Below are positions 5,320-35,818 of a stretch of 39,986 nucleotides of DNA, piece by piece; position 1 is the first letter of the stretch, and each line of letters opens with the position of its first letter. The stretch lies in NCBI GenBank assembly GCA_040902285.1, contig JBBDXP010000009.1:1-39986 (forward strand), given 5' to 3'. The position numbers were made by a program, and so were the translations under genes. The DNA comes from Candidatus Spechtbacterales bacterium (GTDB lineage: Bacteria; Patescibacteriota; Minisyncoccia; Spechtbacterales; 2-12-FULL-38-22). Under the pieces are notes generated by a model. It was not told where the DNA came from and searched no databases. It saw nothing but the letters and a program-made list of their open reading frames with translations.

Positions 5320-7143
5320 TTACGCCGAGGCCATTAATTTTTCAAACTCCTTTTTTTCTATGGTTTCTTTTTCCATAAGGTGCTTTGCCAGTTTCTCTAA
5401 CTTGCTTCTATTTTTTTGAATGGTAACTTTTGCTATTCTTTGGGCTTCTTTTATGAATTTAGATACTTCCTTATCTATGGTGTAGGCAATTTCTTCCGAA
5501 TAGTTTCTTTGTCCGGCCAATTCTTTTCCCAAAAATACCATTTCTTCGGTGTCGCCAAACACAACAGGGCCTAGCTTGTTGCTCATTCCATATTTGGATA
5601 CAAGGCGCCTTGCCAAGTCAGATGCTCTTTTTAAATCATCCGATGCGCCGGTTGATATGTCATTCAACACCATTTTTTCGGAAATATATCCTCCCAAAAG
5701 TACCGCAAGTTCGGCTTCAAACTGCGCCTTGGTTCTGAAGCTTCTTTCTTCCGTGGGAACTTTTAACGTATAACCCCCGGCCTGTCCGCGGGATATTATG
5801 GACACTTTGTGTACAGGGTCGCTTTCGGGCAGGGCGTTTGCAACAACTGCGTGTCCCGCTTCATGGTACGCGGCGGTTTCTTTATCTCTTTGCGTGTAAA
5901 CCCTGCTCTTTTTCTCCGGTCCAAGCATAACTTTTTCTATTGAATCAAGAAGGTCAACTTGTTCTACACTTTTTTTATTTCTCCGTGTGGCGTATATAGC
6001 CGCTTCATTCATTAAGTTTTCCAAATCAGCCCCGGAAAAACCGGGAGTTCTTGCCGCTATTTCTTTTATATCCGTGTTTCTGGCAAGCGGTTTTCCTTTT
6101 GCGTGCAGTTTAAGTATGGCCTCTCTCGCTCTAAGATCCGGCAGGCCTATTATCACGCGGCGGTCAAACCGGCCTGGGCGCAAAAGCGCTGGATCCAGCA
6201 CATCGGGACGATTTGTGGCCGCCATAACTATTATGCTTGCTCCTTGCTCGAAACCGTCCATTTCGTTGAGTATCTGGTTGAGAGTTTGTTCGCGTTCATC
6301 ATTTCCTCCGCCCATACCCGCGCCCCGGAGCCGTCCGACGGCGTCAATTTCATCTATAAATACAATGGCGGGGGAGTTTTTCTTGGCGGTTTCAAAAAGG
6401 TCTCGCACACGGCTCGCTCCAACGCCCACGAACATTTCTACGAATTCTGACCCGCTTATGGAATAAAAGGGAACACCCGCTTCTCCCGATATAGCCCTTG
6501 CCAAAAGTGTTTTTCCGGTTCCCGGGGGGCCCATAAGCATAAGCCCTTTTGGTATGCGCGCGCCCATTTTAAGAAATTTGCGGGGAGTTTTTAAAAATTC
6601 TACTATCTCTTTTAGTTCTTCTTTTTCTTCATCTTCTCCTGCCACATCTTTAAAGGTTATCCCTTGTTTTTTACCTTGCGCCCCTCCGAATAATTTTGCT
6701 TTGGCCTTGCCGAATGTGAATGCCTGCGAAGCGCCTCTTTGCATTCCGCCAAGCATAAACCAAAGAAAAAGTCCTATTATTATAAATGGAATTAATATGG
6801 GTATTGCTATACCGATCCAGAAAAGTAATCCGCTCTCACCTTTTAATTCAAGATTAACTTGCGCTAAATTGTCCTCTCGTACGCCGTAATTTCGCAATGT
6901 TTCGGTAAGCGACGCTTCAGCTTCTTTTTGTGATTTTTGTTTTTCGCCATTTTTAAGGGTTATTTCCAGTTCAGAGCCGGATACAACGATACTTTCCACT
7001 TCTCCTTCGTTTATTTTGGTGGCCAAAGTGTTTAAAGAAATTTTTTCGGCTTCTTGTCCGGGAGAATAAAAAAACGTGGCGAAACTGATAATTGCTATAA
7101 AAACCAATGCAACTATCATTATGTTTTTTGTTAGAGATTTCAT
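5320..7143 (-). CDS. ftsH: ATP-dependent zinc metalloprotease FtsH
   Basis: N-terminal TM helices, Walker A GPPGTGKT, Walker B/second region of homology, and the HEAGH zinc-binding motif. Length is 607 aa. Confidence 0.95.
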
Positions 7144-7221
7144 GCGATATTAAAATTTTACTTTTATTTATTGTAGCACAGGGGAATTTTATATCACATA
7201 CCCAACAAAAATTCAATAAAA

Positions 7222-7259
7222 TAAAAAAGTGCCCCGCTCGCGTTAAGCGAACGGGGCAC
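7222..7259 (-). terminator. Rho-independent terminator of the GC-rich gene
   Basis: Read on the minus strand: gtgccccg-ttcgcttaacgcgag-cggggcac followed by ttttttatt. Confidence 0.65.
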
Positions 7260-7271
7260 ACGGGGCCCGGA

Positions 7272-8033
7272 CTAGCTGTCCGAACTCTCCTCTGAGACCT
7301 CGGCGGCCTCAGTTGTCTCCGGAGCGGTCTCCGCCGAGGCCTCCGAAGAGGTCTCATTGGCATGCCGCGCCTGTCGGAGAAGGCGCTTCTCGTCGCGGAC
7401 GCTGAAGTACTCCATGAGCACTCGGGCGCCCTTCACTCGGCCCTCATTCCGCATCTGCTCGGCAGCTGCGGAAACGAGGTCGTTTCCGAGGTTGACGTGC
7501 AGCCACTCCTTGCCGTTCTCGGACTTCGGCACGATGATCTTGCGATCCTCGGTGCCGTAGTTGGCAAGAGCGGTGTGGTTCAGCCCTTCGACCTCCAGCG
7601 CTTGCCGGAGCTTGGCGGACTTGAAGCCCACATCGAGGAGGTTCTGTCCGGATGTCCGGGCGGCCGCGAACAGCGACTGCACCGGAACTCGTCCGCTCAG
7701 AACTGGAACCACGAGACGGAAGACCACCTGCGCGCGGGACTGCTCGTTGAGCTGGTCCATGCGGTTCTGGAGATCCTCGAACTCCTCCGGCTGCTCTTCG
7801 TGCGGACGGCGCGTCGTGATGCGCTTTGCCGCGTTCAGGGCAGCGAAGAAGGGATTCTCGGAACCCTGTCCCGAAGGAGCACGGTTGCCGATGCTGGCGC
7901 GCGGGGCCCTGGCTGGTGCCTTGGCCTCGCTCTCGCTCGAACCAGAGATCTGGTTCTCCTGCATCTGCGTCTGCAGGTTCTCGATCTGCTCCGGAGTGAT
8001 CTCCTTGGGGGAGACACTTCTCTTGCTAGCCAT
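7272..8033 (-). CDS. Hypothetical protein encoded in a GC-rich (~60%) island, probable horizontally acquired gene
   Basis: A GAAGGAGG RBS lies 7 nt before the ATG (MASKRSVSPKE...). The ORF has strong GC3 codon bias unlike its neighbours, an acidic S/E/T-rich C-terminus, and no family I can recognise. The long plus-strand ORFs over the same region are typical GC-rich antisense artefacts. Confidence 0.6.
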   Translation of the reverse strand: MASKRSVSPKEITPEQIENLQTQMQENQISGSSESEAKAPARAPRASIGNRAPSGQGSENPFFAALNAAKRITTRRPHEEQPEEFEDLQNRMDQLNEQSRAQVVFRLVVPVLSGRVPVQSLFAAARTSGQNLLDVGFKSAKLRQALEVEGLNHTALANYGTEDRKIIVPKSENGKEWLHVNLGNDLVSAAAEQMRNEGRVKGARVLMEYFSVRDEKRLLRQARHANETSSEASAETAPETTEAAEVSEESSDS

Positions 8034-8108
8034 AATTACCTCCTTCAAGGTTGGCTATCTGACCGATGTCGGCGCTTTTGCGCCTTAAGTTCACTGGGAA
8101 CTGCAGTA

Positions 8109-8137
8109 ATATTAGCATATTTACTAAAAAATGTCAA
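8109..8137 (-). promoter_or_regulatory. Sigma70-type promoter for the GC-rich gene (TTGACA-17-TAATAT)
   Basis: On the minus strand: TTGACA (8137-8132), the 17-nt spacer ttttttagtaaatatgc, then TAATAT (8114-8109). Confidence 0.6.
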
Positions 8138-8155
8138 CATTAGTTGACATTTTTT
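8126..8155. promoter_or_regulatory. Perfect palindrome AAAAATGTCAAC-atta-GTTGACATTTTT: rpsA terminator overlapping the -35, candidate operator
   Basis: The 12-bp arms are perfectly inverted around a 4-bp spacer. With the minus-strand T-run the palindrome works as a terminator for rpsA, and one arm contains the TTGACA -35 of the downstream gene. Confidence 0.55.
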
Positions 8156-8176
8156 AAAGTTCTCAATTCTATTTTT

Positions 8177-15300: not shown

Positions 15301-15789
15301 ATGAAAACAAAAACATTAACCAATGTATCAAGAATAGCGACGGTTGCATTTTTGTTGGCAGCGTTTTCCTTAATGCTTGCCGGAAATGTGTTGGCGCACG
15401 GAAACCACAGCGCCACAACAGACAAGTGTTCCTTAAGGGCGACTGTAAGCGCAACCGAGGCGAATGATTTGACCGGAAAGACCGTGGGAACGCACGCACC
15501 AAGCACAACGGGAGGCCTTGACCTCGTGGACCCGAATGTTGCCGGGGATCATGCCCTTATTTGCACATACGGACTTATTAAGTTCGTTACAAATGTTTTG
15601 CTTGTAACGGTGCTTGTGGTTGCGACATTGCTTATCGCTTACGCCGCATTTCTGTTTGTTACAGCGGGCCAGAGCCCGGAAAAAAGAGGCAAAGCACGAG
15701 ATTTTCTTATCTTTGCCATTGTCGGTTTGGTTATAGCAGCGGTAGCAAGCTTGATACCCACCATAGTTCGTGGAATTATCGGAGTGTAA
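15301..15789 (+). CDS. TrbC/VirB2-like pilin-family protein, paralog 1
   Basis: Signal peptide (…LAHG), a ~70-aa exposed region with two Cys, then two TM helices (AAFLFVTAGQSPEKRGKARDF). A terminator hairpin follows. Confidence 0.6.
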   Translation: MKTKTLTNVSRIATVAFLLAAFSLMLAGNVLAHGNHSATTDKCSLRATVSATEANDLTGKTVGTHAPSTTGGLDLVDPNVAGDHALICTYGLIKFVTNVLLVTVLVVATLLIAYAAFLFVTAGQSPEKRGKARDFLIFAIVGLVIAAVASLIPTIVRGIIGV

Positions 15790-15813
15790 TTGCTTTAAGC
15801 GATTCAATCCCAA

Positions 15814-15842
15814 AAACACCCCTTAGCGGGGTGTTTTTGTTA
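15814..15842 (+). terminator. Rho-independent terminator
   Basis: aaacacccc-ttagc-ggggtgttt followed by ttgtt. Confidence 0.7.
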
Positions 15843-15939
15843 TAGGGGTGAAAACGGGGTTGTATTGCAATCAATATTTGTGTAAAATAAAATTATCATT
15901 GATTTTATCGATTTTAAAATACTTATAAGTAAAATAATT

Positions 15940-16425
15940 ATGATAAAAATATTAAAAGCGCCAAAAGCCATTATTGTAACATTTGTTTTAGCGGGAATAC
16001 TTTTTGGTACGGTTCCCGGTGTGTTGGCTCATGGAACACACACAACGTCGTTAGCAGGCAGCGGGTATTGTCTGTTAAGAGTTACCGTTTCTGCCGGTGA
16101 CGCGCAACAACTTACGGGCAGATCTGTGGGTACGCACCCCGCCGGTTACAGGCTTAGTTTAACTGAGCCAACCATAGGTGGAGAACACGCGCTGATATGC
16201 GCCTACGGCCTTATCGGATTTATAACAAATGTGCTCCTTATATTTATACTTGTGGTTGCTGCGGCGTTTATCGCTTATGCCGCGTTTCTGTTTGTTACAG
16301 CGGGCGCCAATCCGGCCACCCGGACGAAAGCCAGGGACTTTTTCCTGTATGCCGTTATAGGTTTGATTGTGGCTCTTTTGGCAAGCCAGATCCCCACCCT
16401 TGTCAGGGGAATTCTCGGAGTATAA
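15940..16425 (+). CDS. TrbC/VirB2-like pilin-family protein, paralog 2 (divergent exposed region)
   Basis: Same architecture as paralog 1. The TM region is conserved and the exposed region has diverged (YCLLRVTVSAGDAQQLTGRSVGTHPAGYRLSL...). Confidence 0.6.
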   Translation: MIKILKAPKAIIVTFVLAGILFGTVPGVLAHGTHTTSLAGSGYCLLRVTVSAGDAQQLTGRSVGTHPAGYRLSLTEPTIGGEHALICAYGLIGFITNVLLIFILVVAAAFIAYAAFLFVTAGANPATRTKARDFFLYAVIGLIVALLASQIPTLVRGILGV

Positions 16426-16451
16426 AAATTAATTATTAAATAAAAATTAAC

Positions 16452-16928
16452 ATGACAAAAATTACGAAAATATCAAGAATTGTCATTGTTGCCTTCGCAC
16501 TTGCCGGTCTTCTTGTGGCACCAAGCGTGTTGGCGCACGGAAGCCACACCGCTACAACAAACAAGTGTTCCTTAAGGGCGACTGTAAGCGCAACCGAGGC
16601 GAATGATTTGACCGGAAAGACCGTGGGAACGCACGCACCAAGCACAACGGGAGGCCTTGACCTCGTGGATCCGAATGTTGCCGGGGATCATGCCCTTATT
16701 TGCACATACGGATTTATTAAGTTCGTTACAAATGTTTTGCTTGTAGTTATTCTTGTTGTGGCATCTCTGCTTATCGCTTATGCCGCATTTCTGTTTGTTA
16801 CAGCCGGCGGGAATCCGGCCAATAGAGAGAAAGCGCGTTCCTATCTTATATTTGCGGTTATAGGCCTTGTTGTTGCTGTTGTGGCAGCGCTTATTCCAAC
16901 CATTGTCAGAGGAATCATCGGGGTATAA
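16452..16928 (+). CDS. TrbC/VirB2-like pilin-family protein, paralog 3
   Basis: Carries a ~190-bp tract nearly identical to paralog 1 (16558-16745 versus 15421-15608). Confidence 0.6.
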   Translation: MTKITKISRIVIVAFALAGLLVAPSVLAHGSHTATTNKCSLRATVSATEANDLTGKTVGTHAPSTTGGLDLVDPNVAGDHALICTYGFIKFVTNVLLVVILVVASLLIAYAAFLFVTAGGNPANREKARSYLIFAVIGLVVAVVAALIPTIVRGIIGV

Positions 16929-26055: not shown

Positions 26056-26131
26056 GCAAAGAGCAGGCTAAGGCCTAGGACGCCAGGTTTTCATCCTGGT
26101 AACACGGGTTCGAATCCCGTTGGCTCTGCCA
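26056..26131 (+). pseudogene. tRNA-Glu-like pseudogene: 52-nt exact copy of the tRNA-Glu 3' portion joined to a non-matching 5' side
   Basis: 26072-26123 is identical to 25850-25901 of tRNA-Glu. The acceptor 3' strand (tggctct-g-cca) does not pair with the upstream sequence. The inverted repeat caaagagcaggct (26057-26069) matches agcctgctctttg (25676-25688), which sits next to a 13-nt tRNA-Glu 5' fragment (25660-25672). Confidence 0.6.
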
Positions 26132-26169: not shown

Positions 26170-26244
26170 AAATTGACTTAAGCTACATTTTATAGCATCA
26201 TATCCTTAGAAAATTGTTCATTGACAAAAGAAAGGAGGTCAAGA

Positions 26245-27615
26245 ATGCCGCCGAAGAATTCCTTAAATTCTCAGCCGGAAGATTTTACGATTAAGCTTGC
26301 CGACGGCCTTCCTCCAAGATGGCAGAAATTTGAGGAAGAGATTAAAGGTATAGTTTTTGACCAGGAACGCCCGATACGAAAGGTAACACGCACTCTTATG
26401 GCCTTGGAAGCGGGACTGCATGATCCGCGCAGGCCTCCAGACCCATTTATATTTGCCGGTCCGCCCGGTTCAGGCAAGACATATCTTGCAGAAATCATAG
26501 CCAAGGTTTGGCTAGGCGAACCTAAGCGAGAAGGCGAGATTGGTCCTCTTATCGTTTTGTCGGGAGAAAACTTCGGCCGTGAGCATGAGGGCTCTACCCT
26601 AAAGGGCGCCCCGCCCAGCTATATCGGGTTTGGACAAAAAACTCCTTTGGAAGATACAGGTGTTTTTGACAAGATGAGGCGTTTGGAGAAATTGTGGGAA
26701 ATTGCTTTTGATTGGGAATATGAAATGGAGAAAAAAGGATTCCGTTCGTTGTCGCCGTCCGCGAGAGATGAGTTTTTTGAACGCGCCAAGAGAATGATGT
26801 ATAAAAAAGCCAAAAGTATGGGGCCGTATCGATCGGTATTGCTGGTTGATGAATTTGAAAAAATGCACATTTCGGTCCAAAAACAATTTCTTGGCATATT
26901 GTCCAGCGGCGGCTTAAAACTGCATTCCGGCAAGTTTGTTGATTTTAGGGGCACTCTTATAATATTTACCACCAACATAGGTTCCGAAGAAATCAACAAA
27001 CTGCTTGAAAACAGGGGAATCGGCTTTGTTTCCACAACTCTTAGCGGAAAATCTCAGGATCAGATAAACCAGCGCATCTATAAGACGACACGCTCAAGAA
27101 TAGAAAAAGATATAGATCCGGCACTCTTTAGCCGCATAGGACATGACGGCATAGTGGTATTCCACGCGCTTCCGAGAGAAACTCTTTCCAAGATACTGGA
27201 TTATGAGATTACCCGCGTGCAGGCAAAACTTTTGAGTGAGGATCTTGGCCCCGTTAGAATTTATGTTTCCGAAGAAGCCAAAGAATTGATATTGAATGGC
27301 GCTGATACTCCGCGCGAGGGAGCCCGGCAGATAGGGCGCCTTGTGACCAAATACATATCTGATCCGCTTGCGCGGGTAATAGAGTCAGATGAACTTAGAG
27401 GCGGGGATGAAGTGTTAATTGCCGTCGAAGGTTCTAAAATACAGCTTAGGCGGCTTCCAAGGCCTACTAGCCCGAAATTGCCACCCCTCCGGCGTCCGGC
27501 AAGAACAGGCGATATGGACACCTTGGAAAAAGAAATGTTTGATGATTTGACAAAAGAATTCAAAAATTTGCTCAAAGAAAAATACCCCATTGTAGCACCC
27601 GAAGAAGAAGATTAA
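26245..27615 (+). CDS. Single-module Clp/Hsp100 D2-type AAA+ ATPase
   Basis: An AAGGAGG RBS precedes the ATG. Walker A GPPGSGKT, KGAPPSYIGFG (matching the IGAPPGYVGY block of ClpA/B/C D2), Walker B LLVDEFEKMH, FVDFRGTLIIFTTNIGS, the VVFHALPRETLSKI sensor region and a GAR sensor-2 are all present. There is no N-domain, no D1 module and no ClpX zinc finger. Confidence 0.75.
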   Translation: MPPKNSLNSQPEDFTIKLADGLPPRWQKFEEEIKGIVFDQERPIRKVTRTLMALEAGLHDPRRPPDPFIFAGPPGSGKTYLAEIIAKVWLGEPKREGEIGPLIVLSGENFGREHEGSTLKGAPPSYIGFGQKTPLEDTGVFDKMRRLEKLWEIAFDWEYEMEKKGFRSLSPSARDEFFERAKRMMYKKAKSMGPYRSVLLVDEFEKMHISVQKQFLGILSSGGLKLHSGKFVDFRGTLIIFTTNIGSEEINKLLENRGIGFVSTTLSGKSQDQINQRIYKTTRSRIEKDIDPALFSRIGHDGIVVFHALPRETLSKILDYEITRVQAKLLSEDLGPVRIYVSEEAKELILNGADTPREGARQIGRLVTKYISDPLARVIESDELRGGDEVLIAVEGSKIQLRRLPRPTSPKLPPLRRPARTGDMDTLEKEMFDDLTKEFKNLLKEKYPIVAPEEED

Positions 27616-27908: not shown

Positions 27909-27946
27909 TAACCTAGATTGATAGTACCTTGAAAAAGGAGGACGAA

Positions 27947-29842
27947 GTGGCCGAAGAACCTCAAATACAAAATACTCAAAAGAATTCTAAAGAATTCGAT
28001 GTACTTATCGCAATATCCACAGAACTGCGGGAAAAAGCGAACGGTATGTTAAGTGAGGATTTTGTCCGTCATATAGACGATATAACAGAAAAAGCGGATG
28101 AACTTGAGACCGCGCGAAAACTGCAGGCGCAGGAGGCGTCGAGGGATATCCAGCAAAATAAGCTGGCCTATCTTAATAAAATAAGAGAACTTAGCATAGA
28201 ACTAAATCAACTTAGCCGAATGCTGAGCGCTCTTAAGGAACAGCCCCCGCTGATGTCTGCCAAATTTGTTAGATTTGTCCGTTATCATGAAATAGAAGAA
28301 TACGGCAAGAAGGTAAAGATTCCAGTTGTGGATATTGTAAATTCCAGCGGTTCCAACGCGCGCGTTTTTGTGCATCCGGAGCTGGATGTTTCCAATGTTA
28401 AGTATGGACAGCGCGTTCTTGTAAGCGCGGGCAACATGACTATAATGGAAATTTTGCAAGAATTCGAGGTTATAGGACAAGAAGCATATGTCGAGGCTCT
28501 CTTGGAACCCGATTTTGAAGGTAAGCGTGTTTTGGTATCGGAAGGCCAGCTGGACATGAAAATAGTGGCGCATCTGTCCTCTTCCGTGGAAGATAAAGAA
28601 ATGGAAGAAGGCACTAGGGTTCTTGTAGATACAAAGACATCTTTGGTCGTGGAAGTGCTTCCCGAGCATGAGAGCCGCCGTTACATTGTGGGCGAAATCC
28701 CAAATGTCACTTTTTCTGATATCGGAGGCCTGGACGGCATTATCGCGAGGATAGACGAGCATGTTATATGGCCTATAATCTATCCCGATGTGTGGGAAAA
28801 AATAGGATTGGATTCTCCAAAAGGATTTGTGCTTGCCGGCCCGCCGGGTGTGGGCAAAACCATGATTGCCAAGGCGTTGGTAAACTATCTTAATGAAAAA
28901 CTCGAGGAAGTTCATGGCAAACCCGTACAGGGCCGTTTCTTCCACATTGCCGGACCTGAAATTCAAAACAAATATGTGGGCGAGACCGAACGCATTATGC
29001 GCGAGATATTTGCCCAGGCGGCAAAGAATGCTTCTCCGCTAAGCCCCTCCTTGGTATTTTTTGACGAAGCGGACGCGCTTTTCCCAAGACGCGGTTCGGG
29101 AGTCTCCTCCGATGTTGAAAAGACGAATGTTACCCAATTTACAGCCCTTATGGACGGCCTTGAGACCAGGAGCAACATTATAGTTGTTTTGGCGACAAAC
29201 CGCCCCGAACTTTTGGATCCCGCGGTCATACGGCCCGGGCGCTCGGACTTCACTGTGGATGTTCCGCGGCCCAACGAAGAAGCCGCCAAAGCCATTTTTG
29301 CCAAATACATAAGGCCCGAATGGGGGCAGATAAATCCTAAATACGATCAGGAGGTTTATATTCCAAAAGACAAAAAGGGCAATACGCGCGTTGATGACTC
29401 CGGAAGTGATATAAAACTTTACTTCGGACACAAGCCGCAAGAGGTTGTGGATTATCTTATCGCTAAAGCAACAGCGCGCATGTACGATCTGGACAATCCA
29501 AGAAACAAATTTATCAAACTCAAGTTTAGGGATTATTCGGAAAAAACTCTCCGTTACGGCGATTTTGCCTCCGGCGCTATGATTAAAAATATAGTGGATC
29601 GTGCCAAGAGATTTTCCGTTCATGATCATAAGGTTGGAGGTGAAGAACTCGGGATAACTCTCGTACACCTGTACAAAGCCATTGAAGAGGTCTTTTCTGA
29701 GCTTAGGGGTCCTTCCGGAGCCGGCGATTCCAGCACCTGGCTTGAAATAGAAGGCCATGTCCGCGGAAATAACGTTACGGGAATAGAATTTCTATCCAGA
29801 GATGCGGATGATTCTGACGATGATGAAGAGCCCATTTTATAA
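27947..29842 (+). CDS. ARC/Mpa-like (proteasome-associated-ATPase family) AAA ATPase
   Basis: An N-terminal coiled-coil (…LSIELNQLSRMLSALKEQ…) is followed by a tandem OB-fold inter-domain (…NARVFVHPELDVSNVKYGQRVLVSAGNMTIMEIL…). The single AAA module has Walker A GPPGVGKT, KYVGETERIMREIF, and Walker B/arginine finger VVLATNRPELLDPAVIRPGR. The C-terminus …DDEEPIL has no GQYL/HbYX docking motif. Confidence 0.8.
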   Translation: MAEEPQIQNTQKNSKEFDVLIAISTELREKANGMLSEDFVRHIDDITEKADELETARKLQAQEASRDIQQNKLAYLNKIRELSIELNQLSRMLSALKEQPPLMSAKFVRFVRYHEIEEYGKKVKIPVVDIVNSSGSNARVFVHPELDVSNVKYGQRVLVSAGNMTIMEILQEFEVIGQEAYVEALLEPDFEGKRVLVSEGQLDMKIVAHLSSSVEDKEMEEGTRVLVDTKTSLVVEVLPEHESRRYIVGEIPNVTFSDIGGLDGIIARIDEHVIWPIIYPDVWEKIGLDSPKGFVLAGPPGVGKTMIAKALVNYLNEKLEEVHGKPVQGRFFHIAGPEIQNKYVGETERIMREIFAQAAKNASPLSPSLVFFDEADALFPRRGSGVSSDVEKTNVTQFTALMDGLETRSNIIVVLATNRPELLDPAVIRPGRSDFTVDVPRPNEEAAKAIFAKYIRPEWGQINPKYDQEVYIPKDKKGNTRVDDSGSDIKLYFGHKPQEVVDYLIAKATARMYDLDNPRNKFIKLKFRDYSEKTLRYGDFASGAMIKNIVDRAKRFSVHDHKVGGEELGITLVHLYKAIEEVFSELRGPSGAGDSSTWLEIEGHVRGNNVTGIEFLSRDADDSDDDEEPIL

Positions 29843-29962: not shown

Positions 29963-31579
29963 ATGCCTGACAAGCCGCGCAAGATAATAATTGGCGCTGA
30001 AACCGAATATGGAATATTTGCGACAGAAAACGGCCAAATACTTGATAATGAGGCCTTAGGACTTGTGAGAGAGGCCGAAAATGTAACCAAAGATTTTTTC
30101 CTTCGCCCGCTTGAGGGCATAGAAGATACCGAAGAACATGAAAATCTTGATTCTATGACTGATGAGGATTTTTTGCGCCAACCGGAAAGTTATCAAAGTT
30201 CCGGAGAAAGGCAGAGGCGCGGCCTTACCGGTTTTGTTCTCTCAAACGGATGCAGATTCTATGTTGATATGGGTCATCCGGAGTATTCAATTCCCGAAAC
30301 AACAAATCCCATGGATGCTCTTGTCGCGCAAAAAGCGGGAGACAGGATAGTTGAGCTTTGCAGAAGATTATTTGAGGAAAGATTAAAGAACGAAAATAGG
30401 AATATTTCGATTCGTTTGGATAAAAACAATAGCGACGGTAAAGGGAACAGCTATGCCGCGCACGAAAATTATTCTCTTACCCCCGAAACCTTTACGGAAA
30501 TAACTAATCGTTATGGGTCAAGAGAGTTGGAAGATATTGTGTTGAATTTTTTCACCACGCGCCAGATAGTGACAGGGGCCGGAAAGGTTGGATACGAGAC
30601 AGGAAGACCCGTTCCATACCAAATAAGCCAGCGTGCGGATTTTATTGAAAAGGAAAAAAGCTTAAACACGGTCGAAAAGAGGGGGATAATAAATTTGCGG
30701 GACCATTCCTATGCCGGATACGATGATGTCCGCAGATTGCATGTTATATGCGGAGACGGCAACATGTCCGAATTGTCTCTGTATCTTAAATTCGGCACAA
30801 CAGCGCTTATTTTAATGATGCTTGAAAGCGGATTTATACAGAGCGAAGGAAGTTCTGTTTTGATTCGCATGCAAAATCCCGTCCGCTCGTATAAAAATGT
30901 ATCAAGAGACCTTTCCCTGGGCCACAAGATATTTTTTGAGGACGGTTCTAAAAGGACCGCTTTAGCCATACAGGAGGAATTTTATTCTCTGGCCAAAAAA
31001 TTTACCGATGGAAACGATATTGATCCTATATGGCGCGATGTCGCAGACAAGTGGGAAAAGGTTTTGCACGGTCTTGCCGGGGAAAGAAATTCTGATGAAT
31101 GGGCCGGCAATCTGGACTGGGTTAAAAAAGAAACCATACTCAAACGGCATCAGGAGAAAAAAGGAGTTTCTCCGCTTCATCACACATGCCGCGCCGTGGA
31201 TCTTCAGTACCACAACATAAATCCCGAAAAAAGCATTTATTGGCGCCTGGCTGAAAGAGGAGACATACTTTTGTTTGCCACCAAAGCCGATATAGAGAGG
31301 GCTATTAATGAGCCACCTTCGGACACAAGGGCGTGGTTCAGAGGGCAAACCGTTAAACAGTTTAGAAATGTTCTGGACGGTATCGGCTGGCAATATATTA
31401 AATTTGCCGATAAATACATTTTTATGGGCAATCCATTTTCTGGTTCAAAAGAAGCAGCAGAGAGTATTTTTGCGGGGGTTTCTTCTCCGGAAGAATTTAT
31501 TGAAAGATTGTCGAAAGCAATTGAACGGAAGGAGAGTGGATTGGAGGGCTTTAGTGTCGGAGAAGGGTGGTTGATATAA
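29963..31579 (+). CDS. dop: Pup-ligase-family protein, Dop-like (depupylase/deamidase-type)
   Basis: The N-terminal IIIGAETEYGIF strand (Dop-type E-Y-G) is followed by a ~45-aa insertion before the conserved RFYVDMGHPEYS block, consistent with a Dop loop. The carboxylate-amine-ligase fold is retained at 538 aa. The Dop versus PafA call is an inference. Confidence 0.7.
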   Translation: MPDKPRKIIIGAETEYGIFATENGQILDNEALGLVREAENVTKDFFLRPLEGIEDTEEHENLDSMTDEDFLRQPESYQSSGERQRRGLTGFVLSNGCRFYVDMGHPEYSIPETTNPMDALVAQKAGDRIVELCRRLFEERLKNENRNISIRLDKNNSDGKGNSYAAHENYSLTPETFTEITNRYGSRELEDIVLNFFTTRQIVTGAGKVGYETGRPVPYQISQRADFIEKEKSLNTVEKRGIINLRDHSYAGYDDVRRLHVICGDGNMSELSLYLKFGTTALILMMLESGFIQSEGSSVLIRMQNPVRSYKNVSRDLSLGHKIFFEDGSKRTALAIQEEFYSLAKKFTDGNDIDPIWRDVADKWEKVLHGLAGERNSDEWAGNLDWVKKETILKRHQEKKGVSPLHHTCRAVDLQYHNINPEKSIYWRLAERGDILLFATKADIERAINEPPSDTRAWFRGQTVKQFRNVLDGIGWQYIKFADKYIFMGNPFSGSKEAAESIFAGVSSPEEFIERLSKAIERKESGLEGFSVGEGWLI

Positions 31580-32976
31580 TGAAAGACAGAGCCGTTGGTA
31601 TAGAAAATGAATTTGGCGTAATGCTTAAGGATGATTTTGGCAATTTTAGTTCTCAAGAGAACGAAATGCTGGCCATTAACAGCATTCCTCGTGAAAATTT
31701 GCCTCAAGGGGGTGGAATGTCCAACGGACGTTTCTGGCTTGCCAACGGAGGCAGTGTATACATAGACCTGGGCCATCCGGAATATGCTTCTCCCGAATGT
31801 CTCAGGTTGCGTGATCTGATTGCTGTAAGCCGCGCGGGAGAGAGGATTTGTTCCCGTATGTTCCATTACGCTGTTAGTAATGGAAGGTATTGGCAGCTTT
31901 TTAAGAATAATTTGGAAATTAGCGCCGAAGGAGGAGAAGGAAATTCGTTCGGATGTCATGAAAATTATCTCATTCACGGATATAAGCCGGAAGACGAGGT
32001 CATGCATACGCATCTTCTTCCCTTTCTGATAACTCGGCAGATATTGGACGGAGCGGGATGGTGGGCTTCGGACGGCAGATTTTCATTTTCTCAAAGAGCG
32101 TTGATTTTGGGCACCGTGGCGGCAATGGGTACCACGGAGGGGATAAGCCGTCCCATCATAAATCTTAGAGACGAGCCCCATATACAGAATAGGGAAGGAA
32201 TGAGCAGGTTGCATCTCATTTTGGGCGATGCCAACATGCTGGACTGGGCCTTGTATCTTAAATTCGGTACCACCTCCCTTGTACTGGCCATGCTTGAAGA
32301 AGGCCATATATTCAGGGATACGTGCCAAAATCCCATTGAAGCCATGCGCAGAGTGGCGTTTGATAAGACCGCGCGGAAACGGCTATTGAAATTTAGCGGG
32401 CGCGGGAAAATGAGCGCGCTAGAAGTGCAGGAATTTTACCTTGCCAAAGCCGAAAAATACGTCTCTATAACTGATTTTGCAAGCTACGAAAGCAGATTGG
32501 AAGCGCTCCAAACCGTGTGCATGTGGCGCGAGGCCTTAAATGCGATAAAAAATCGCGATACCGCATGGATGCTCGGACGGCTTGATTGGGCAACAAAGCT
32601 GTATCTTGGAAACAAAGAGTGGTCGAACAAAAAAAATTCGGGCGCTAGTGAAATGGACATCAAAAAACGCGTTGATATTCTTTATCACGCCGTGACCGAC
32701 ACAAGATTGCGCGACCGAATATATGCCAAGTGGCCGAACAGGCAGCTGGTCGGCGGACAGGAAATTGAGTATATGATAAATAATCCCCCACTGGACACCC
32801 GCGCGAGAATAAGGGCGTTGTTTATTGATCTCTGCTCAAAAAAACAATTCGGCACGGATAAGGACATATCTGTGAATTGGTCCAAAATAGTATATAGAGG
32901 CAAGGCGTTTAACTTGGGATACCCTTTAGACAAGGATAATCTCGAGGTTGAGAAACTTATCAGAAATCTCTTGTAA
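31579..32976 (+). CDS. pafA: Pup-ligase-family protein, PafA-like
   Basis: VGIENEFGVM (PafA-type E-F-G) with no loop insertion; SVYIDLGHPEYASPE; 466 aa. Its ATG overlaps the dop-like stop as TAATG, which suggests translational coupling. The track ORF begins at an upstream GTG (31567). Confidence 0.7.
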   Translation: MKDRAVGIENEFGVMLKDDFGNFSSQENEMLAINSIPRENLPQGGGMSNGRFWLANGGSVYIDLGHPEYASPECLRLRDLIAVSRAGERICSRMFHYAVSNGRYWQLFKNNLEISAEGGEGNSFGCHENYLIHGYKPEDEVMHTHLLPFLITRQILDGAGWWASDGRFSFSQRALILGTVAAMGTTEGISRPIINLRDEPHIQNREGMSRLHLILGDANMLDWALYLKFGTTSLVLAMLEEGHIFRDTCQNPIEAMRRVAFDKTARKRLLKFSGRGKMSALEVQEFYLAKAEKYVSITDFASYESRLEALQTVCMWREALNAIKNRDTAWMLGRLDWATKLYLGNKEWSNKKNSGASEMDIKKRVDILYHAVTDTRLRDRIYAKWPNRQLVGGQEIEYMINNPPLDTRARIRALFIDLCSKKQFGTDKDISVNWSKIVYRGKAFNLGYPLDKDNLEVEKLIRNLL

Positions 32977-33035
32977 AATTGTAAAATAATCTGTAATAAT
33001 AAGAGCAAATGCAACCGGAAAGGAGGATTGCCGTG

Positions 33036-33230
33036 CCGCCGCAAGAGCAGATAAGGCCTAATCGCAAAAGGGACGATTCCAGCGAAGACCAGGAATATGT
33101 CCGCAAAGATAAAGATGATGAAGAAGATTCCTCCGAAGAGGAGCTAGACGATGAGGAGCTGAACATCGACGATCTTTTGGAAGAATCAGAAGAACTTACA
33201 AAGAAGTATAAGCAGAAAGGCGGAGAGTAA
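33036..33230 (+). CDS. pup: Prokaryotic ubiquitin-like protein Pup homolog, C-terminal GGE
   Basis: A GAAAGGAGG RBS lies 6 nt before GTG 33036. The 65-aa product is acidic and low-complexity, ending …DDLLEESEELTKKYKQKGGE. This resembles the actinobacterial Pup C-terminus (…DDLLDEIDDVLE…YVQKGGQ/E) that binds Mpa and is ligated by PafA. The track ORF (33009) adds 9 N-terminal residues from an ATG that has no RBS. Confidence 0.75.
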   Translation, partial: PPQEQIRPNRKRDDSSEDQEYVRKDKDDEEDSSEEELDDEELNIDDLLEESEELTKKYKQKGGE

Positions 33231-33241
33231 GCAGTACTTTT

Positions 33242-33266
33242 AGCCCCGTTTTAACGGGGCTTTTTT
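33242..33266 (+). terminator. Rho-independent terminator
   Basis: agccccg-tttta-acggggc followed by tttttt. Confidence 0.75.
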
Positions 33267-33274
33267 ATTGGGGG

Positions 33275-33303
33275 TTGACTCTCATGCCCTAGATATCTAT
33301 AGT
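33275..33303 (+). promoter_or_regulatory. Sigma70-type promoter TTGACT-17-TATAGT (second copy of the module at 27877-27947)
   Basis: ggggttgactctcatgccctagatatctatagttaacctagattgatagtaccttgaaaaaggagg. AGGAGG lies 7 nt before GTG 33344. Confidence 0.65.
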
Positions 33304-33343: not shown

Positions 33344-35818
33344 GTGCCTGCCGAAGAAAGAGACGGTATACGGGAGTTAAATCCTGAAGAGCTTTGCCGG
33401 AAATGGCAGCCCGAAGAGTTTAATTCCGAAGTTGAGCCCGATACGGGATTTTCCAACGGAGTTTGGCTGGGTATCAGCCAAGATCGCTTGTTCAAAGCGC
33501 TTGATTTCGGTTTGAGCAGAGACGCACCGGACCATCATATATTTGTTTCTGGAATAACGGGCCCAACGGTTTTGGAGGCCCTTGAGAAGTTTGTTCTGGA
33601 TTTTGAAAACAAGAACACTGGAGAACTGTCCCAGTTGCGGGATTGGTGCTATGTATATAATTTTGACAATCCCCGCAACCCCGTTGCGATTCCTCTGCCC
33701 GCGGGCAGAGGAAAGGTACTGCGCTTTAAGATGAAAAAGAATCTGTCTCGTTTGCAGGATGCCATACCAAATGCTCTCAACAGCGAGAATGTCGCGCAGG
33801 AACATTTGCGGGCGACCAGTGAATTCAATGATTGGTTTTCGGCCGCGCAGGAGAGCACAAGGAAAAGAGCTGCCGAAAACCAAGAGGCGATAGTGGAGTT
33901 CGGTGATTCCGGCTTTGACGTCAACATCATTCCGTGGCGCTATAAGAGTTTGAACGAAGAAGAAAGGGAAGAGCTGGGCAGAACCCTCGCTTCCAAAGAA
34001 AAACAGCGCGACAGGAACACGATAAGCAAATACATGCCCGAGATTATAGCAATACGGAATGAATTTCTCAAAAGAGATGCAAAGTTGCGCGAGGAATTAA
34101 ACCGAATAAATCAAAGTGCCATAAAAGAAGCCATACAAGGGGTGTTTAGAAGTTTGCGCGGAAAACTCAGCGAAAACAGCAGAAGTACCGCTCTTACAAG
34201 ATATATAGACAGCGTTGAGAAATTTGCCACAGAAAATTACCCAATTTTTCTTCAAGGCAAAAATAAAACGGTACCTAGAGTGGCCAAACAGGAGCCTGAC
34301 ATCTTTATTCCCTGGGAAGTAAATGTGTTTGTCGATAACAGCAACGCCAAAGGCCCGCCCGTTGTCATAGAGCTTGATCCGACATTCGAAAACCTTGTCG
34401 GAAGGATTGAAAAAGTGGTAATGGCGGGTGGAATGGTTTCAACGGACCATACCAGAATAGCAGCCGGTTCGCTCGCGCAGGCAAACGGCGGATATCTGCT
34501 TTTGAATATTCGCGATGTTCTTGTGCGGCCGGGAGCTTACGAAGCTCTTAAGAACGCTGTAAAGAATAAAACTCTGGAAATTTCCGAACTCATGTCCGCT
34601 ATGGGTTATGGTTCAATGTCTTCTCTGGATCCGACACCCATTCCGCTTAATCTTAAGCTTGTAGTTACGGGCATTCGAGGTTTGTGGGAGTATCTTTCAC
34701 ATGCGGATCCGGAATTTTCAAGCATATTTAAGATAAAGGCGGATGTAAATCCGGATGTTGATCGCAGTCCCGACGAGGCATCGGCGTGGGCCCGGTGGAT
34801 GACTAAGCAGTATTCCGAACACGGGCTTCTGCCGCTTGAAAACGATGCCATGGGGCGGATAATTGATTACGCTTCGCGTGTTGCCGGTTCCAAAAAGCGT
34901 ATAGCCACTAATTTTGGGCTTTTGCAGGATTTGATGAGCGAATCTTCTTATGTTGCCAAAAAAGAAGGTGCTGAAAGAATAAGCGCCCAACATGTGCGTA
35001 GTGCCATAGCGGACAGAAAATTCCGACTCAGTTTGTATCAGGAACGCCGTCTTAGGAGCATACAAGAAAGCCACACGCTGATAGATGTAGAGGGTGGCGC
35101 GGTTGGTCAAATTAACGGCTTAGTTATTTTTGGGGGCAGGACTGAAGATGCTTGGTTTGGCGGTCCTAGCCGTATAACGGCGCAGGTTTCTATGGGAAAG
35201 CCGGGTTTTATCAATATTCAGCGAGAATCCAAAATGTCCGGACCTTATCTGGATATGGCCGACGCCATAGTCAACCGTTATCTTATGGGTACATATGCTA
35301 AGAAGTATCCCATTGCTTTACAGATAAGCATCGCCTTTGAGCAATCATATGGCGGGGTGGACGGAGACAGTGCCTCTCTCGCGCAGTTGTATGCCACGCT
35401 TTCGGCTGTGGCCGAAGTGCCAATACGCCAGGATGTTGCCATAACGGGTTCTCTTAACCAAAGAGGGGCCGTGCAGGTCATTGGCGGAGTTAACGATAAG
35501 ATAGAGGGATTTTTTGACGCATGCCTTGCCAAAGGCGGGCTTTCGGGAACCCAGGGAGTTATTATTCCCGAAGGCAATGTTTCTGATTTGATGCTTCGCG
35601 AAGATGTGGTTGAAGCTGTCCAAAATGGCAGGTTCCATGTTTGGGCAGTAAGCCATGTGAGCGGAGGTATCAAGATTCTACTGGGTATGCCCGCAGGAGA
35701 GCGTGATAACGAAGGCAAATTCCCCGAAGGTACATTTAACGCGATTGTGGATGAAAAACTGCAAAGTTATGCCCGCAACGCGAAAAACTTCTTTAAAGAT
35801 GAAGAAGCGGAAAAATAA
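33344..35818 (+). CDS. Lon-like (S16 family) serine protease with a degenerate AAA-like domain lacking Walker A (LonC-like)
   Basis: The C-terminal protease domain has DGDSASLAQLYATLSAV (compare the Lon PKDGPSAG catalytic Ser block) and ITGSLNQRGAVQVIGGVNDKIEGF (compare the Lon TGEITLRGRVLPIGGLKEK catalytic Lys block). No GxxxxGK[ST] motif occurs anywhere in the 824 aa. Confidence 0.7.
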   Translation: MPAEERDGIRELNPEELCRKWQPEEFNSEVEPDTGFSNGVWLGISQDRLFKALDFGLSRDAPDHHIFVSGITGPTVLEALEKFVLDFENKNTGELSQLRDWCYVYNFDNPRNPVAIPLPAGRGKVLRFKMKKNLSRLQDAIPNALNSENVAQEHLRATSEFNDWFSAAQESTRKRAAENQEAIVEFGDSGFDVNIIPWRYKSLNEEEREELGRTLASKEKQRDRNTISKYMPEIIAIRNEFLKRDAKLREELNRINQSAIKEAIQGVFRSLRGKLSENSRSTALTRYIDSVEKFATENYPIFLQGKNKTVPRVAKQEPDIFIPWEVNVFVDNSNAKGPPVVIELDPTFENLVGRIEKVVMAGGMVSTDHTRIAAGSLAQANGGYLLLNIRDVLVRPGAYEALKNAVKNKTLEISELMSAMGYGSMSSLDPTPIPLNLKLVVTGIRGLWEYLSHADPEFSSIFKIKADVNPDVDRSPDEASAWARWMTKQYSEHGLLPLENDAMGRIIDYASRVAGSKKRIATNFGLLQDLMSESSYVAKKEGAERISAQHVRSAIADRKFRLSLYQERRLRSIQESHTLIDVEGGAVGQINGLVIFGGRTEDAWFGGPSRITAQVSMGKPGFINIQRESKMSGPYLDMADAIVNRYLMGTYAKKYPIALQISIAFEQSYGGVDGDSASLAQLYATLSAVAEVPIRQDVAITGSLNQRGAVQVIGGVNDKIEGFFDACLAKGGLSGTQGVIIPEGNVSDLMLREDVVEAVQNGRFHVWAVSHVSGGIKILLGMPAGERDNEGKFPEGTFNAIVDEKLQSYARNAKNFFKDEEAEK

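Follow-up and report, generated by a model that had tools for sequence, protein, structure and literature searches.

Does the small open reading frame (ORF) that directly follows two genes of the Pup ligase family in a Candidatus Spechtbacterales genome encode the protein tag of a pupylation system, and if so, what would become of the tagged proteins at a locus with no proteasome genes nearby? We addressed this question in a 39,986-nt stretch of contig JBBDXP010000009.1 (hereafter the window), which belongs to a metagenome-assembled genome (MAG) of the Minisyncoccota (candidate phyla radiation (CPR)/Parcubacteria). Sequence comparisons indicate, with a probability that we put at about 85%, that positions 33033-33230 encode Pup and that the pupylation cluster to which they belong, made up of ARC/Mpa-like, Dop-like and PafA-like genes and pup, is complete, with no proteasome genes in the window. 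To our knowledge, pupylation has been characterised only in Actinobacteria. We found no open-access paper on pupylation in CPR bacteria or Patescibacteria, or on a PafA/Pup ligase in Parcubacteria. Pup proteins with the terminal residues G[EQ] were reported to occur sporadically outside Actinobacteria as early as 2008 (PMC2588565), and sporadic PafA/Dop homologs occur in other phyla (PMC7947786).

Coordinates and start codon of the candidate pup gene

The initial annotation of this DNA had placed a small ORF at 33009-33230 on the plus strand, and this frame exists; it encodes 73 aa when read from its ATG and ends in the 20 residues quoted there, DDLLEESEELTKKYKQKGGE. The acidic 65-aa product that had been described is the translation from an in-frame GTG (33033-33230, plus strand, TAA stop), which has 40% D+E and a pI of 4.2 and which we describe as a candidate PupE-type Pup-family modifier with the end ...YKQKGGE. 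The same annotation had favoured the GTG as the start, and this preference holds, although its coordinate has to be corrected: the GTG occupies 33033-33035, and 33036-33038 reads CCG.

For comparison, we used CPR contigs carrying relatives of the PafA-like protein of the window, namely L002, L003, L004 and L091, which share one form of the locus, L005, and L090. The Pup-bearing CPR loci retrieved represent three independent lineages, consisting of the window together with L002 and L091, of L005, and of L090. A start of pup at GTG 33033 and not at ATG 33009 is supported by sequence evidence, since a Shine-Dalgarno sequence, GGAAAGGAGG (33017-33026, plus strand), is separated from the GTG by a 6-nt spacer, since the codon of the L002 ortholog that aligns with this GTG is an ATG, preceded six codons upstream by a TGA stop, and since a gene call on an independent Logan assembly (contig L001) returned the GTG start and a product of 65 aa. 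The Shine-Dalgarno sequence falls within the spurious extension from ATG 33009, and that ATG is itself preceded by AAGAG alone, 3 nt away. The starts of the L005 and L090 products (MPQEQ and MSQKQ, respectively) coincide with the position of the window GTG, and Shine-Dalgarno sites lie 5-7 nt upstream of the start in all four loci compared (window, L002, L005 and L090). At the other end of the gene, a hairpin with a T run that resembles an intrinsic terminator (33242-33267, plus strand; 8-bp stem with 6 GC pairs, -17.6 kcal/mol, z -2.9) begins 12 nt past the stop codon, and a GC-rich hairpin with a T run comes right after the pup stop in the same four loci. The 56-bp gap between pafA and pup also contains a weak promoter-like site (32971-33000, TTGTAA-18-AATAAT with TG, 9/12 matches), which could provide extra transcription of pup alone.

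Homology to actinobacterial Pup

Pup is the top or the sole family match of the pup product in curated models, despite scores below their thresholds (given below). Because the curated models thus see this product but do not accept it, we built an independent hidden Markov model (HMM) from 48 actinobacterial reference Pups, which came from loci among the matches listed in a scan of genome contigs with a PafA alignment. As targets for this model we took the stop-to-stop ORFs of 30 aa or more from all six frames of the window and of five CPR loci, 2271 ORFs altogether. The top four were exactly the small ORFs found 3′ of the PafA-like gene, with E-values of 5.5e-9 for L005, 4.3e-6 for the window (rank 2), 4e-4 for L002 and 0.66 for L090, and the next-best window ORF had an E-value of 14. 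The L090 ORF came first among the 303 ORFs of its contig (E 2e-4) when the HMM was built without it. The window product scored 27.3 bits against the actinobacterial Pup HMM, a score attained by none of 6000 composition-preserving shuffles (3 x 2000, of which some kept the GGE end and some were shuffled only within each half; maxima 8.9-13.9 bits).

Profile comparison gave the same picture. Alignment by hhalign of a profile of the four CPR proteins with 12 actinobacterial Pups yielded a probability of 96.7% (E 3.4e-10) and ran from end to end, with columns 1-57 set against columns 1-64. Among PDB chains, the single sequence and the CPR profile alike matched Pup only (below E ~0.5), the profile with E-values from 7e-4 to 9e-3. 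BLASTP against Mycobacterium tuberculosis Pup found 16/31 identities over the segment IDD(V/L)LEE...Y.QKGG[QE], in which I45-D-D-L-L49 of the window product stands opposite I43-D-D-V-L47 of the mycobacterial protein; the initial annotation had instead paired the window segment with an upstream DDLL of M. tuberculosis Pup, and that pairing has to be given up in favour of the supported alignment.

Other features of the product are also those of Pup. The N-terminal pattern MxxxEQ(I/T)(R/K) is common to it and to actinobacterial Pups (for instance MAQEQTKR and MAEREQIRR), and at 65 aa, with ...QKGGE followed by the stop, it has the size (50-90 residues) and the terminal G-[EQ] of the family. Of the 709 stop-to-stop ORFs in the window that reach 30 aa, the pup ORF alone ends in GG[EQ], and 17 of the 48 reference Pups end in GGE. 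The proposed homology to Pup is therefore borne out by the custom HMM, the shuffles, hhalign, the restriction of PDB matches to Pup chains and the gene context described below, and the assignment of the ORF as a genuine, divergent Pup-family homolog is supported. Its product is probably a new, unannotated member of a known family.

Conservation of the ORF

An ORF in the corresponding position is present in the related contigs; their lack of it had been named in advance as a sign that would count against a pup gene, and this sign was not seen. The positional ortholog shared by L002, L003, L004 and L091 is 66 aa long, is 75% identical to the window product and ends in ...YKQKGGE; that of L005 has 59 aa and ends in ...YRQKGGQ, and that of L090 has 57 aa and ends in ...FQQETGE. 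Since the L090 ortholog ends in TGE and the window product in KGGE, both endings coexist within the CPR. Conservation among the CPR products is strongest at their very end, QKGG[EQ], and the gene order arc-dop-pafA-pup of the window recurs in L002, L005, L090 and L091.

Between the window and L002, the nucleotide differences in pup fall at the three codon positions as 13/8/37, with a pS of 0.87 (saturated), a pN of 0.166 and a pN/pS of 0.19. The last 20 codons contain 11 synonymous and 2 non-synonymous changes. These changes are consistent with purifying selection on the sense frame.

Genes upstream of pup

The ARC-, Dop- and PafA-like genes and pup are co-oriented, and pup comes directly after the PafA-like gene. 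The first of them (27929-29842, plus strand) encodes an ARC/Mpa-like AAA+ unfoldase; Pfam models for OB and AAA domains match it, as does TIGR03689 (pup_AAA), with 1e-110 but a score short of the equivalog cutoff. In addition to a helical N-terminal region, the protein has a pair of OB domains, a KYVG pore loop, and Walker A (GPPGVGKT) and Walker B (FFDEAD) motifs that are both intact, and an alternative start lies 18 nt downstream.

The next gene (29963-31579, plus strand, 538 aa) encodes what by sequence is clearly a Dop-like rather than a PafA-like protein, a putative depupylase paralog. Its best model is the Dop model TIGR03688, with 369.6 bits against 284.9 bits for the PafA model (equivalog cutoff 492.3, above its score), and in the PDB it scores 297 bits against Dop and 168 bits against PafA. 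In a neighbour-joining (NJ) tree it groups with 10 actinobacterial Dops in 98 of 100 bootstraps. It has an HPEYS motif and, at the position of the Dop-loop, an insertion of ~40 residues that is missing from the PafA-like paralog. In public data, CPR-type Dop-like proteins form ~43 clusters, named merely 'PafA2 family', in Spechtbacterales and Parcubacteria-group MAGs.

The third gene (31579-32976, plus strand, 465 aa), whose ATG overlaps the dop stop codon (TAATG), is probably the Pup ligase gene. It scores 265 bits with TIGR03686 against 226 with TIGR03688, lacks the Dop-loop, and carries the motifs GIENEFG (GhExE), YID and HPEYA; its best full-length actinobacterial matches are annotated as Pup--protein ligase. 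A scan of genome contigs with this single window protein gave no match, and among the matches listed for the same scan with a CPR alignment there were Actinobacteria alone.

Just upstream of the ARC gene, the gene at 26221-27615 (plus strand) encodes a single-ring AAA+ protein that resembles the D2 half of ClpB alone (Pfam AAA_2 and ClpB_D2-small). It occupies the same position in L002 and L091 and is kept in the closest relatives only, and it is a possible accessory of the cluster.

The ligase family is also represented elsewhere in the CPR. In L005 (1277-5831), three ligase-family genes, one Dop-like and two of the CPR PafA-like clade, precede the GGQ-ending Pup, whereas in the window two precede the GGE-ending one. 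Two Sungbacteria-like contigs, L006 (6545-17664) and L088 (10001-14774), carry 7 and 3 tandem Pup_ligase-family paralogs, respectively, beside dnaJ-dnaK-grpE-hrcA, and these paralogs group with the PafA-like gene of the window in one CPR clade; no ARC, Dop-like, LonC or Pup-like ORF was found within ~10 kb of them (HMM E > 4). In L130 (9001-10422) and L131 (7412-8833), a lone Pup_ligase-family gene stands amid cell-wall and repair genes, with no Pup-like ORF nearby, the 400-bp downstream gap included. The idea that a Pup ORF accompanies these tandem or orphan paralogs was rejected, as the HMM search found none.

Observations that weigh against the assignment

Several observations speak against the reading of this locus as a pupylation cluster. 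The scores of the curated models are low: the Pfam Pup model PF05639 gives 19.4 bits (E 0.0021, residues 5-65) against a gathering score of 27, and TIGR03687 gives 16.8 bits (E 0.0052) against a cutoff of 41.45, so that the search with a Pup model, which had been proposed as a check, did recover Pup but not at curated thresholds. Three of 16 positions that are invariant in Actinobacteria are not conserved, namely L40, N50 (deleted) and V55. In addition, the 73-aa form had no match among 5.8 billion proteins in a word-indexed search, and the 65-aa form had none among 1.84 billion representatives searched exhaustively with phmmer, where not even the query itself was recovered. Both of these searches are uninformative, because exact look-ups show that such small proteins are mostly not in the collection: its 15 billion proteins include the neighbouring NCBI proteins but not the 65-aa or the 73-aa product. 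The earlier expectation that so small a gene is easily missed holds only in part, since at least one automatic caller did find it.

The remaining points concern the strand and the ligase. The mirrored antisense frame, which shares its third positions with pup, also has a low pN/pS (0.26), and hence pN/pS supports coding but by itself does not discriminate strand; because the antisense frame is constrained as well, the strand call rests on the homology, the Shine-Dalgarno sequence and the terminator. In the NJ tree, the PafA-like protein falls into a CPR clade of its own and does not join actinobacterial PafA, and pairwise comparison with PDB structures gives it a higher score against Dop than against PafA. 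In view of this clade and this score, its ligase activity is putative.

Predicted pathway and the LonC-like neighbour

From the actinobacterial system, we infer how Pup is conjugated, how the two ligase-family paralogs share the work and that ARC binds Pup. The 65-aa Pup, which is probably disordered, would offer its Gly-Gly-Glu end to the PafA-like carboxylate-amine ligase, which would phosphorylate the terminal gamma-carboxylate and attach Pup to substrate lysines with no prior deamidation step; the Dop-like paralog would take the tag off, and the ARC-like AAA+ ring would bind Pup and unfold the tagged protein. The unfolded substrate might then be either remodelled, as in Corynebacterium, or handed to the adjacent LonC-like protease. 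PupGlu, the Glu-ending form of Pup, needs no deamidation, and Dop then acts as a depupylase (PMC12288473, PMC8223512). Given that the window Pup ends in Glu, ligation without deamidation would leave Dop as a depupylase here too, which is standard knowledge and a reasonable expectation for this locus.

The fate of the substrate turns on what takes the place of the proteasome. No sizeable ORF of the 40-kb window, in which prcA and prcB were sought, has a Proteasome-family match. The C-terminus of the window ARC (29800-29842) reads ...DDDEEPIL in place of GQYL, the motif by which the ATPase docks on the proteasome (PMC8223512, PMC12288473). The tails of the ARC proteins of four CPR relatives (L002, L005, L090 and L091) are likewise acidic and end in EE[PA]I[LD], so that 0 of 5 CPR ARCs have the GQYL end, with which 33 ARC ORFs of the actinobacterial reference loci among the matches listed do terminate.

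Downstream of pup, the gene at 33344-35818 (plus strand) encodes an 824-aa LonC-like protease with matches to PF20437, PF13654, PF20436 and PF05362 (LonC_helical, AAA_32, LonB lid and Lon_C). The PDB chain that it matches best is MtaLonC of Meiothermus taiwanensis (4FWD; 268 bits, E 1e-78, residues 316-782). MtaLonC is an ATP-independent, hexameric Lon-like protease. In the window protein, the Walker A and B motifs have degenerated to SGITGPTV and LLLNIRD, respectively, and the catalytic dyad of Ser (GDSAS) and Lys (GGVNDK) is intact. The gene has the domains and motifs of LonC, and ATP independence of its product is predicted. A LonC-like gene lies 3′ of pup in every Pup-bearing CPR locus retrieved, across the three lineages and with differing outer flanks. 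In L090, the equivalent is split into three ORFs (5661-6530, 6626-7501 and 7506-8171).

This arrangement suggests a route by which pupylated proteins might be degraded: the ATPase-dead, chamber-forming LonC-like protease would replace the 20S proteasome and would be fed with unfolded, pupylated proteins by ARC, which perhaps docks by way of its conserved acidic ...EE[PA]IL tail in place of GQYL. The constant position of the LonC-like gene amid otherwise different flanks argues for this route, as do the loss of its Walker motifs with retention of the Ser-Lys dyad, the identity of its closest solved relative, the intact ATPase motifs of ARC combined with a CPR-conserved substitute for GQYL, and the lack of a proteasome-family ORF within the window. 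On the other hand, a terminator and a separate promoter-like site (TTGACT-17-TATAGT at 33275-33303 in the window) lie between pup and lonC in all four loci, the absence of the proteasome holds for 40 kb, and contact between ARC and LonC is hypothetical. Moreover, neither a Pup ligase nor an ARC gene flanks 38 of the 39 LonC-like relatives from metagenomes. A link of the LonC family as a whole to Pup was rejected for this reason, and the association is therefore one-way: the Pup clusters are accompanied by LonC, but only some LonC genes by a Pup cluster. We found no open-access paper linking LonC with pupylation. We consider the route tentative and on balance doubtful, and a Corynebacterium-like non-degradative role, or the use of other proteases, is at least as likely. 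If the route is real, a Pup-Lon pathway would be a new pairing of ubiquitin-like tagging with a non-proteasomal chamber protease and the first known substrate-delivery route for LonC; the conservation of the LonC neighbour and the change in the ARC tail are the sole features of the locus that could lead to something new.

Comparison with known systems and alternative readings

The closest parallel to the window protein is actinobacterial PupGlu, such as Corynebacterium glutamicum Pup (PF05639, TIGR03687). It resembles PupGlu in length (65 aa as against 60-70 aa), in acidity, in its N-terminal MxxxEQ, in the IDD(V/L)LEE helix segment, in the Y.QKGGE end and in having ARC, Dop and PafA homologs alongside. 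It differs from PupGlu in falling below the curated thresholds, in the three positions that are not conserved, in the loss of one residue between its two helix segments and in a central region that is far more charged, and the order arc-dop-pafA-pup and the CPR host are further differences. In M. tuberculosis, by comparison, the gene order is dop-pup-prcB-prcA. With the mycobacterial Pup-proteasome system, in which the GQYL of Mpa docks on 20S PrcAB, the locus shares an Mpa-like ATPase with OB domains, a Dop/PafA pair and a Pup with a C-terminal recognition and ligation segment; unlike that system, it has no prcA or prcB, its ARC has no GQYL, and its Pup is predicted to need no deamidation.

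C. glutamicum, which has ARC, Dop, Pup and PafA, no prcBA, and uses the system in ferritin disassembly, pupylates without a proteasome (PMC12288473, PMC8223512). The window is similar in having tagging and unfolding genes without 20S genes nearby and a Pup of the PupGlu type, and a non-degradative or alternative fate of tagged proteins is plausible (PMC12288473, PMC8223512). It is dissimilar in that the absence of the proteasome here refers to 40 kb, in the conserved LonC-like gene beside pup and in the EEPIL tail of ARC. As to that gene, the LonC-like protein shares with MtaLonC the LonC helical insertion, degenerate Walker motifs and the Ser-Lys dyad; it is ~90 residues longer, its N-terminal third is not aligned by phmmer, and it adjoins a pupylation operon, of which we found no report for LonC.

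Another reading concerns classification. UBact, reportedly described by Lehmann et al. in 2017, is said to comprise Pup homologs in Gram-negative and candidate phyla, Parcubacteria included. Its proteins reportedly end in [ST]G[EQ], and its loci are said to carry proteasome subunits. The window gene could belong by descent to this lineage and not to Pup proper: the host is a non-actinobacterial organism of CPR/Parcubacteria type, a small modifier stands beside PafA, Dop and Mpa homologs that are deeply diverged from the actinobacterial ones, and the ...ETGE end of the distant L090 ortholog resembles this UBact ending. The QKGGE of the window and the QKGGQ of L005 are, however, the actinobacterial Pup signature, Pup models are the sole family matches with no UBact-named model in the Pfam/NCBIfam output, and the LonC-like gene in the neighbouring position is a further difference. 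We therefore regard descent from the UBact lineage as improbable, and since UBact is itself a Pup homolog, the question is mostly one of naming.

It is more improbable still that the protein is a small acidic adaptor or regulator of ARC or LonC, which would remain unconjugated and mimic only the C-terminal half of Pup. The failure to reach curated thresholds, the indirect assignment of the second paralog as a ligase and the TGE end of the L090 ortholog would accord with such a role. It is opposed by the concentration of conservation in QKGG[EQ] and of synonymous over non-synonymous changes in the last 20 codons, by a protein that stops exactly on E or Q in four of four loci, and by Dop-like and PafA-like genes that are always upstream. 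Finally, that the ORF is no gene, being a chance frame in purine-rich, low-complexity DNA or the complement of a real antisense ORF (32960-33166 or 32685-33044, minus strand), is a notion for which one could cite the GA-rich codons that keep antisense frames open in the window and in L002 and the pN/pS of one such frame, but which is effectively refuted by the shuffles, by the full-length profile matches to Pup, by retention of the ORF across lineages whose neighbouring enzymes are ~36-44% identical, and by a Shine-Dalgarno sequence, terminator and co-orientation that fit the plus strand.

Taken as a pupylation cluster, the locus bears on the biology of its hosts. CPR bacteria are ultra-small and host-dependent and their genomes keep very little, and the conservation of a compact pupylation system in them therefore suggests that tagged turnover or remodelling of proteins matters to these organisms. 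Very divergent Pup, Dop and PafA sequences are now on hand for mechanistic study. Because pup scores below the model thresholds and its product is absent from the protein collection, the Pup genes of this lineage are probably under-annotated.

Other features of the window

Some features of the window lie apart from the cluster. Ribosomal protein L19, encoded at 982-1680, continues at its C-terminus into ~110 residues of acidic, low-complexity sequence, the last of which read ...GELKKGG. At 26060-26128, Rfam gives a weak tRNA match (35 bits) that ARAGORN did not call, and a tRNA-Ile gene with the anticodon TAT (2178-2252) is part of a cluster of five tRNA genes. Three tandem paralogs of ~160 aa, with weak matches to T4SS_pilin (PF18895), are encoded at 15301-16928.

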